Source: an uncultured delta proteobacterium (GTDB lineage: Bacteria; Desulfobacterota; Syntrophia; Syntrophales; UBA2185). Taken from it: 64,000 bases of DNA. The notes beneath the pieces are model-generated. The model did not search any database and was not told the DNA's origin. It worked only from the letters and a program-made list of their open reading frames with translations. The number at the start of each line of letters is the position of its first letter. The stretch's first letter is position 1. Position numbers and translations under genes: made by a program. This document shows positions 18,923-20,932 of this stretch, one piece after another. Location of the stretch: NCBI GenBank assembly GCA_963729715.1, contig CAVSPA010000007.1, forward strand, positions 96,001 through 160,000, written 5' to 3'.

Positions 18923-20932
18923 ATGAGTAAACGAAAGGCGGCCGACGCCAAGAGCTGGGTGGAGAAGGCCGTAGCTTTCTATAAAGATTCCGGCAAGAGA
19001 ATAGCGCTAGCCGAATATTCGAACCCCGAGGGACAATTTGTGCAGGACGAAAGGTATATCTATGTATTGAGTCTCAAGGGGACCATGCTCGCGCATGGCA
19101 TCAATGAAAAATTTGTGGGTGAGGATTTCAGCGACGTCAAAGACTACGACGGCAGGACCTTCATTAAGACAATCATCAGGAAGGCCAAGGCTGAAGGCAG
19201 CGGCTGGGTGAACTATAAATGGTACCACCCTGTAACCGCGCAGATGGTGCCCAAGACTGTGTATTTTGAGAAGATCGATGATCTGATTATTTGCAGCGGC
19301 GACTATACGGAATTCTCCAAGGGCGTAGCCCTGCTACACGATCCGATGCTGAATAAAGGAACCGCTTTTACAGAGGCGGAGCGCGATGCATTGAAACTGC
19401 GCGGTCTTCTACCGCCGCATGTTCAAACACAGGAAGAACAGGCAGGGCGGGTTATGGACAATTTCCGAAAAAAACCCAACGACCTGGAACGCTATATCCA
19501 GTTGATCGGCCTGCAGGACCGCAATGAGACGCTTTTCTACCACGTCGTGATGAACAACATCGAGCAAATGATGCCCATCATCTATACGCCCACCGTGGGC
19601 CAGGCCTGCCAGGAATACGGCCATCTATTCCGCCGTCCGCGGGGCCTTTACCTATCAATAAAAGACAAAGGCAGAATTGCAGAAATCCTGGAGAACTGGC
19701 CTTACAAGGACATACGCATCATCGTTGTGACCGACGGCGAGCGCATCCTGGGTCTCGGCGACCTCGGTGCATTCGGCATAGGCATACCGGTCGGCAAGCT
19801 TTCTCTCTACACGGCCGCTGCCGGCGTCCATCCGTCGTATGCCCTGCCTGTGCTGCTGGATGTCGGCACGGAAAACAAGACTCTGCTGAATGATCCTCTT
19901 TATACGGGCATATTCCAAAGGCGGGTTCGCGGCAAGGCATACGATAGCTTCTTTGCGGAATTCGTGAAAGCCGTACATAAAGTGTTCCCGAAAGCACTGA
20001 TCCAGCTTGAGGATTTCGCCAACATCAATGCCTTCCGTCTGCTTCACGAATACAAGAACCGCACCTGCATTTTCGATGATGACATACAGGGAACAGCTTC
20101 CGTAGTGCTGGCCGGAGCTTATTCCGCCTTACGTATCACCAAGGGTCAGATGAAGGATCAGAAGTTCCTCTTCCTCGGCGCCGGCGAGGCCGGCATAGGC
20201 ATCGGCGATCTCATCGTTTCCGCGCTGGTCGAAGAAGGCATGACAATTGAGGAAGCCCGCAAGCGATGCTGGTTCATGGATTCAAAGGGTCTGGTGGTAA
20301 AGAGCCGCCTGGGACTCGCCGAGCATAAACTCCCATACGCGCACGACTACCGATCCTGCCCGGATCTGCTCGCGGCCATCCAAACGCTCAAGCCTACCGC
20401 ACTCATCGGCGTATCGGGCTCTTTTAAGGGCTTCACGCAACCAATAGTGGAAACCATGGCAAAGCTCAATGAGCGCCCCATCATCTTCGCACTCTCGAAC
20501 CCGACGTCGAAAGCCGAATGCACGGCGGAAGAGGCTTACACCTGGTCTGCCGGCCGCGCCGTCTTCGCGAGCGGGAGTCCGTTCCCACCAGTCACGCTCG
20601 GCGGTCAGACCTTCAGGCCGGGCCAGGGAAACAACGTCTATATCTTCCCCGGAATGGGTCTGGGCATCATCGCGTGTGAAGCAAAGCATGTAACCGACCA
20701 GATGTTCTTGACGACGGCGAAGTCCCTGGCCGGCCAGGTCCTGGAGAGCGACATCGCGGAAGGCCGCGTCTATCCGGCGTTGAATAGGATCCAAGAGGTC
20801 TCCATCGCCATAGCGGTAGCAGTGGCTGAAGTCGCCTACAAAGAGGGCCTTGCACATAAGAAGAGACCGGCAGATCTCCTGGCCTACATCAAATCGCAGA
20901 TGTACAAGCCGATTTACCAAAGCTACATCTAA
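18923..20932 (+). CDS. Single Cache domain fused to NAD(P)-dependent malic enzyme (MaeA/SfcA type)
   Basis: aa ~1-128 are Cache-like ([36 protein letters not shown]). aa ~131-669 are malic enzyme ([52 protein letters not shown]). Confidence 0.9.

Follow-up and report, generated by a model that had tools for sequence, protein, structure and literature searches.

A cytoplasmic sCache_2 domain fused to a malic enzyme in Syntrophales, apparently an undescribed architecture

What would a Cache domain do inside the cell, joined to an enzyme of carbon metabolism? In a survey of the superfamily (PMC4822843), Cache domains are described as extracellular inputs and signalling outputs are present in all architectures except SMP_2; sCache_2 proteins without transmembrane helices (174 of 2243, supplement file 9) are counted there and only counted, and in its supplements (files up to 12, the twelfth in part) the word 'malic' appears solely as a ligand or in a reference. 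The question is raised by a gene at positions 18923-20932 (forward strand) of the window, by which we mean the whole stretch of 64,000 nucleotides analysed here, from an uncultured deltaproteobacterium of the order Syntrophales. Public records label its product solely as malate dehydrogenase. Judged by titles and abstracts, the open-access literature yielded no description of a Cache-malic enzyme fusion or of stand-alone cytoplasmic sCache proteins, and the fusion is a real, conserved and apparently undescribed architecture.

Architecture of the fusion gene and its protein

The gene is a single open reading frame (+) of 669 amino acids without an internal stop; it starts with ATG behind a strong Shine-Dalgarno sequence (18907-18916, +; duplex energy -8.1 kcal/mol) and has the same length in 10 of 10 complete alleles. 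Pfam places sCache_2 at residues 37-129 (PF17200, 61.8 bits, cut-off 25), malic at 198-378 and Malic_M at 388-639, with no other Pfam domain in the 669-aa protein, and the NCBIfam model PRK13529 covers residues 132-668 (742.8 bits, cut-off 326). The original prediction of one 669-aa reading frame, with a Cache-like N-terminus and an intact malic enzyme, is thereby upheld by Pfam, NCBIfam and a structure model in agreement.

The sCache_2 domain occupies residues 1-128 (18923-19306, +), as identified by PF17200, by a phmmer match to 5g4y (E 1.9e-11), by its modelled fold and by the mapping of its pocket described below. The structure model was built from a 145-row alignment (mean pLDDT 89.3, pTM 0.78) and replaced one from a 19-row alignment (pLDDT 70.5); its residues 1-130 have the N-terminal helices and PAS-like core of a single Cache fold and superpose on the acetate sensor Adeh_3718 (4K08; Z 18.3, rmsd 2.5, 126 aligned) and on 5g4y (Z 17.5). 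Residues 132-669 match the pigeon enzyme 1GQ2 (Z 52.0, rmsd 1.7, 536 aligned, 55% identity). In the model the final Cache strand (121-128) ends at residue 128 and the first enzyme helix (133-139) starts at 133; between them lies a linker of residues 129-132 (19307-19318, +), also delimited by alignments, in which no fused allele aligned has an indel. The placement of the Cache domain relative to the enzyme is left open by these model scores.

No signal peptide or transmembrane stretch was found in the fusion protein, since hydropathy over 19 residues reaches at most 0.69 in residues 1-140 and 1.52 overall, and the domain can be taken as cytoplasmic, as had been proposed. Having no hydrophobic segment and no signalling output domain, the protein is not a transmembrane Cache receptor of the MCP, HK or DGC kind.

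The enzyme half (19319-20929, +) was assigned by NCBIfam, alignments and the match of the model to 1gq2. With its subunit of about 60 kDa, the domains PF00390 and PF03949 and a PRK13529 score above cut-off, it belongs to the large-subunit enzymes, group 2 in the definitions given in section 15 of PMC8100219. Fold and catalytic, metal and NADP-specificity residues are common to the fusion and the large-subunit NADP enzymes of pigeon (1GQ2), human (ME1/ME3) and maize (5OU5); none of the solved large-subunit malic chains matched carries a Cache domain, and their short N-terminal arm is replaced in the fusion by the 128-residue domain. Y221, R274 and K292, which we take to be the catalytic Tyr, Arg and Lys, and E363, D364 and D387, presumably the metal-binding Glu, Asp and Asp, are invariant in 31/31 fused and 69/69 unfused rows, and judged by these residues the active site is intact. 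The determinants of NADP specificity, Ser346, Lys347 and Lys362 in eukaryotic numbering (PMC3183043), are found in fused rows as S454 (31/31), K455 (30/31) and K469 (31/31); together with D453 and R462 they form a residue set (D453-S454-K455, R462, K469) by which the malic enzyme half is predicted to be of NADP type. Identity as a malolactic enzyme was rejected, NF041582 giving 527 bits under a cut-off of 850.

The fusion had been called obligatory. This holds for the window's allele, which has no start codon at the junction: the next in-frame ATG beyond it, codon 142, has no Shine-Dalgarno sequence (+0.3) and a start there removes conserved enzyme residues. It does not hold throughout: codon 133 is an ATG in 14 of 28 alleles, preceded by a weak Shine-Dalgarno-like motif (-4.5 to -4.8) that is also seen in alleles without that ATG, and these 14 could start internally.

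A scan of 18650-21100 gave no promoter-like site and one terminator-like site, not above shuffles. GC3 is 0.65 and 0.68 for the two halves against a genome median of 0.57, which does not date the fusion. Just upstream of the Shine-Dalgarno sequence, at 18868-18899, lies a perfect 15-bp inverted repeat of a REP-like dispersed palindrome family; it was rejected as a regulatory element, its core occurring at 25 genomic places (at most one mismatch) and the hairpin being upstream in only 5 of 28 related loci.

Distribution and origin of the fusion

That the junction is an assembly artefact or a one-off deletion fusion is next to impossible, because no support for this was found and the identical junction recurs across numerous assemblies made independently, whose sequences differ by dS values above 1. 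This outcome had been set beforehand as the test of the fusion, and it is refuted by a colinear junction in 10 of 22 genomes of the window's family (f1) and in 21 of 80 metagenome loci. Bridging of 19280-19340, proposed as a check, was obtained independently of the window's assembly: among contigs from four sequencing runs, a 317-bp contig of DNA run X1 lies across 19169-19485 with 0 differences. A contig of RNA run X19 lies across 19263-19574 with 20 differences in 312 bases, which is a weak hint only, as a contig from an RNA run is no proof of transcription.

With residues 1-200 as query, the best 120 of 5353 matches included at least 11 protein clusters with both domains (77-98%), and the whole junction query was covered in 10 of 21 genome loci (Syntrophales, Syntrophaceae or deltaproteobacterium). 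In a search of 339 genomes from the order, the fusion is matched over its full length at 11 places; these lie in 10 genomes, every one of family f1, and 276 further matches are weaker. The Pfam malic model detects in family f1 exactly 11 genes, in 10 of 22 genomes, and these are the same as the full-length fusion matches, so that no unfused malic enzyme was found in the family; in the window's genome, too, the fusion is the only malic-enzyme gene found. The metagenome loci (80 kept of 391) comprise 21 fusions with the same gap-free junction and 59 stand-alone domains. An unfused enzyme beside a Cache domain, the ancestral split state, was present in none of the 80 metagenome loci or 22 family genomes. 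When the enzyme part was used as query (8000 candidates scored), all 11 bacterial clusters of at least 78% carried the Cache domain and the nearest unfused one stood at 75% (P0445, a butterfly protein of 1039 aa with 52% identity, was excluded from the count of close relatives). Neither in this search nor in the 80 metagenome loci and 22 family genomes did we find an allele that keeps the enzyme and has lost the Cache domain.

The fusion gene is dispensable within family f1, a malic match being absent in 12 of the 22 genomes (82-100% complete). In one of these 12, genome G182 (L059:3703-4173), a deletion fused a thioredoxin N-terminus to the enzyme's C-terminus, and the Cache domain and most of the enzyme are gone.

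The Cache part had been read as a co-opted ligand sensor. By the domain tree it derives from a native family of stand-alone cytoplasmic Cache proteins and not from a receptor. The window's genome has ten sCache_2 matches, namely the fusion, five proteins with a signal-peptide-like start and four stand-alone ones without a hydrophobic N-terminus (G000:C4:312924-313316, C7:436295-436705, C5:162575-163048 and C5:163126-163536). The nearest stand-alone relative is the C4 copy (71%), which sits behind a 390-aa NDK-like gene, an arrangement repeated in all 9 further family loci retrieved for it, and 22 of 22 family genomes contain such a match. A FastTree with 23 fused, 69 stand-alone and 9 secreted-type domains places all fused domains in a single clade (0.988) inside the stand-alone ones. 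Residues 24-31 are near-invariant in fused and stand-alone forms and different in secreted forms, and the fused domains have fixed changes of their own (V72, H102, Q107 and D127, and K106 to G/A).

For the enzyme, an IQ-TREE of 33 sequences (a subset of 96) unites the 8 fused rows (100/99) and puts them close to a Verrucomicrobia sequence and to unnamed proteins. Grouping of the fused rows with 8 other Syntrophales enzymes was rejected by an AU test (p 4e-5), in which the Syntrophales group was named after a FastTree was seen and the unfused rows were picked by similarity. From these trees we infer a single fusion event, in which a malic enzyme acquired from outside the order was joined to a duplicate of one of the native genes for stand-alone cytoplasmic Cache proteins.

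Ligand pocket and possible functions

According to PMC5062169, PscD binds C2-C3 carboxylates through hydrogen bonds of Y90, H103, Y143 and K156, between W92 and W145, F126 and M129 form the back wall of the pocket, and identical pockets can differ in affinity. At a gap-free, constant offset of 45 the fusion has Y45, H58, Y98 and K111, with Y47 and W100 as sandwich and I81 and I84 as back wall, so that Tyr, Ile and Ile stand where PscD has Trp92, Phe126 and Met129. The Tyr-His-Tyr-Lys set and aromatic sandwich of sCache_2 sensors for C2/C3 carboxylates (acetate, propionate, pyruvate) are both present, and the carboxylate-type pocket suggested by the original prediction is borne out in that Y45, H58, Y98 and K111 coincide, with spacing preserved exactly, with the four residues by which PscD forms its hydrogen bonds. 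PscD (5G4Y/5G4Z), Adeh_3718 (4K08) and 4EXO of V. parahaemolyticus have the same fold and Tyr-His-Tyr-Lys spacing as the fusion; these three are periplasmic and lie between chemoreceptor transmembrane helices, whereas the fusion has neither membrane anchor nor signalling output. A His at the site equivalent to H58 favours pyruvate over lactate, as stated in PMC12415202.

Y45, H58, I84, W100 and K111 are kept in 25/25 unique alleles and Y47 and Y98 in 24/25, and the Tyr-His-Tyr-Lys motif is intact in 24/25; the exception, L099, has Y47F and Y98H plus further odd changes. Across 23 fused domains, 62 of 128 positions do not vary at all, so that the invariance of the pocket is not statistically special and speaks for retention, not for pocket-specific selection. 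Median dN/dS (Nei-Gojobori, pairs with dS 0.2-1.5, median dS about 0.85, pairs not independent) is 0.115 in the fused Cache domain (279 pairs from 25 unique alleles) and 0.096 in the enzyme part (216 pairs from 22 alleles), against 0.059 in the stand-alone Caches next to the NDK-like gene (126 pairs from 23 alleles). The fused domain is under purifying selection; by these values it is maintained as strongly as the enzyme, yet is about two-fold more relaxed than its stand-alone sisters.

We consider it nearly an even call that the Cache domain binds a cytoplasmic C2-C3 monocarboxylate and allosterically tunes the flux from malate to pyruvate and NADPH. The NADP-dependent malic enzyme half would convert malate to pyruvate, CO2 and NADPH, working in the decarboxylating direction; the sCache_2 ligand would most likely be pyruvate, acetate or propionate, and its binding would adjust activity, most simply as product or end-product feedback. 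The junction suggests a route of coupling: the Cache domain is predicted to be joined by about four residues to the enzyme's first helix, at the dimer/tetramer centre in plant homologues, so that ligand-dependent shifts of the domain could act on the oligomer. Model residue 130 aligns with residue 93 of the maize malic enzyme, in which helix 96-101 adjoins an N-terminal sheet connecting all four protomers, and N-terminal extensions alter the oligomer state or cut turnover (kcat) by 40% (PMC13100509). A complex prediction for Cache 1-128 and enzyme part 131-669, with a single enzyme subunit only, gave a score of 0.00 where the mark was 0.32, which is evidence neither for binding nor against it.

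Control of this type has a precedent in MaeB/DME/TME (ME-PTA; PDB 6zng, 6znj), where a malic enzyme has likewise recruited a non-catalytic ligand-binding domain: according to PMC7902834, the PTA domain mediates allosteric control and senses acetyl-CoA, and its removal leaves an active but insensitive enzyme. The architecture had been presented as unfamiliar among malic enzymes, which stands as regards a Cache domain and needs qualifying as regards sensor-fused malic enzymes in general. The fusion is not itself a MaeB member, for MaeB belongs to the small-subunit enzymes (group 1) and has its PTA domain at the C-terminus, and the fusion is a group 2 enzyme with an N-terminal sCache_2 domain, no PTA domain and about 23% identity to the MaeB catalytic domain. 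By analogy, the fusion enzyme may work like the PTA control of MaeB through an unrelated domain; if so, it would be a second independent route to sensor-controlled malic enzymes and would extend the Cache superfamily to intracellular allostery.

The genome has a methylmalonyl-CoA/C4 cluster and a mutase; it encodes MDH, fumarase, SDH/FRD, a carboxyltransferase pair (the mmdA-like carboxyltransferase under its cut-off), epimerase and succinyl-CoA ligase. It also has PEPCK-GTP, PPDK and pyruvate kinase (PK), and PntB had no match in it (completeness 100%, contamination 6.5%). In the methylmalonyl-CoA/C4 pathway malate normally goes to oxaloacetate, which is the carboxyl donor. A malic enzyme would divert malate from this oxaloacetate route, the carboxyl being lost as CO2 and NADPH gained, and for that reason gating by C2-C3 acids would be useful; NADP malic enzymes in general supply NADPH (PMC8100219, section 15). 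Genes for the N- and C-terminal parts of methylmalonyl-CoA mutase and MeaB lie in the window at 49976-53206, and the remaining pathway is at G000:C5:344-357 kb.

The domain could instead be a structural passenger, which we consider unlikely: the incoming enzyme gene would have landed downstream of a duplicated copy of the Cache gene, whose promoter and ribosome-binding site it took over, and the domain would serve folding, solubility or oligomer state and not catalysis. The origin of the enzyme outside the order and of the Cache part in a native gene is consistent with this, as are the two-fold relaxation, the damaged pocket of L099 and the accidental look of other module fusions (the P0223 ligase fusion corresponds to two adjacent genes in L066, and MFS fusions to 2 of 15 listed members). 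Such a passenger is harder to reconcile with the polar residues H58 and K111, kept in 25/25 alleles over dS near 1, and with the failure to find an enzyme that had shed its Cache domain, though a deletion or the ATG at codon 133 could yield one.

It is also unlikely that the domain binds a carboxylate, keeps the job of the stand-alone proteins and anchors the enzyme to a partner without control over the active site. Partners would be a transporter, a CoA enzyme or, in a heterodimer, the sister Cache proteins, and the four stand-alone copies without signal peptide in the same genome, the residues 24-31 shared with them, and relatives that adjoin CstA, an acetoacetate-CoA ligase or the NDK-like gene or are fused to an MFS transporter, a CoA transferase or a ferredoxin all argue for tethering. 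No partner was identified, however, and the changes confined to fused domains, which could be enzyme adaptation or founder effects, count against it.

A sensor of a C4 acid (malate, fumarate, succinate or butyrate) that gives feed-forward activation upon substrate import is quite improbable. Some sCache_2 domains do bind malate or succinate, the back-wall residues I81 and I84 are smaller than F126 and M129 of PscD, and three tested loci have DctA next to the gene. For C4-dicarboxylate binding, however, arginines (R108 and R125 in Atu0646) are used by the malate sensor Atu0646 and its relatives, according to PMC13702588 and PMC12395807, and at these positions, mapped by spacing, the fusion has no Arg for the second carboxylate (K63; T79/F80/I81). 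The Cache part also scores higher with the monocarboxylate-sensor profile MctS (38.2 bits) than with CtpM (25.3), both far below cut-off.

Allosteric control by a C2-C3 acid remains our preferred reading, for a function read from sequence within a single family of uncultured organisms. Against it count the relaxation of the fused domain, the altered pocket of L099, the dispensability of the gene, the readiness of the module to fuse and the internal start open to 14 of 28 alleles. The protein is soluble and the NADPH assay is simple, which would give a direct handle on the cytoplasmic Cache family and on acid sensing in fatty-acid-degrading anaerobes.

Gene neighbourhood and the wider Cache module

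Window positions 20968-32698 hold a LarA-family racemase gene, below all cut-offs (malate-racemase models included), a branched-chain-type ABC transporter, a glycerate-kinase-like gene, a UxaA/GarD-like dehydratase in two genes, a hydroxyacid reductase and a lactate permease. The fusion gene does adjoin this hydroxy-acid cluster, as first noted, but the cluster is convergent, on the opposite strand, and its linkage varies across the family; an operon with the LarA-like, ABC and glycerate-kinase genes was therefore rejected. Neighbours vary among the 31 fused loci (some duplicates). A DctA C4-dicarboxylate transporter lies 3' of the fusion gene in L086, L091 and L095, and also in L085 by the DctA N-terminus; a binding protein follows it in L006, L009, L083, L087 and L093, with an MFS symporter where the contig extends; and a convergent LarA-like gene follows it in the window's subclade. 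What recurs in these neighbourhoods is carboxylate uptake and not the hydroxy-acid cluster of the window.

It is possible, if on the doubtful side, that Syntrophales and Syntrophobacteraceae turned sCache_2, a periplasmic sensor of carboxylates, into a general intracellular module for sensing short-chain acids, comparable to ACT or PII proteins. Its small free-standing forms would work in trans; in cis it would work on malic enzyme, transporters, CoA enzymes and a 2Fe-2S ferredoxin and from within the ATPase domain of a kinase. The malic-enzyme fusion would then be the first assayable case, and these anaerobes would read their own acetate, propionate and pyruvate pools in this way.

The module was surveyed by profile searches (best 120 of 133 and best 150 of 6607 matches), which are no census. 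Among the matches listed are tandem double Cache copies, including P0195 of Syntrophobacter fumaroxidans, and single cases of a Cache domain on acetoacetate-CoA ligase and on CoA transferase. In P0206, P0209 and P0422 the domain is fused to a thioredoxin-like 2Fe-2S ferredoxin (a cluster of 11, with one Syntrophobacteraceae member). At L066:1533-8000 an acetoacetate-CoA ligase-like gene, an extended Cache gene, a CstA-family symporter and a second Cache gene lie in one run, and P0223 is the first two of these genes as one protein. An MFS metabolite/H+ symporter with a C-terminal cytoplasmic Cache domain (L009:11260-13092, P0122) is encoded two genes downstream of a Cache-malic enzyme gene; this fusion occurs in 2 of 15 listed cluster members. 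Some module fusions are probably read-throughs, and the module is readily, and often sporadically, joined to other proteins.

In P0221, P0231, P0232, P0256 and P0296 the Cache domain is inserted within HATPase_c of soluble histidine kinases, which are cNMP-HisKA kinases where full-length; a sensor is not usually placed there. An HMGL-like (Re-citrate synthase-like) enzyme of the window's genome (L164:1327-3216, G000:C4) has a C-terminal dCache_1/PDC-type domain with no significant BLASTP similarity to the sCache_2 domain of the fusion (E 30), and by its sequence this tail is an independent recruitment, which makes the protein the second central-carbon enzyme of this genome to have a soluble Cache-type domain. 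Secreted stand-alone sCache_2 proteins adjoin an MCP gene (G000:C10:62722-63716; L063, L064 and L065) or lie behind DctA (L085, L086, L091 and L095), which suggests split sensor-receptor pairs. P0233 and similar proteins are built from long tandem arrays of sCache_2 (16 stretches matched over 2099 aa), to which cupin, lactate permease or nucleotidase domains are added in some.
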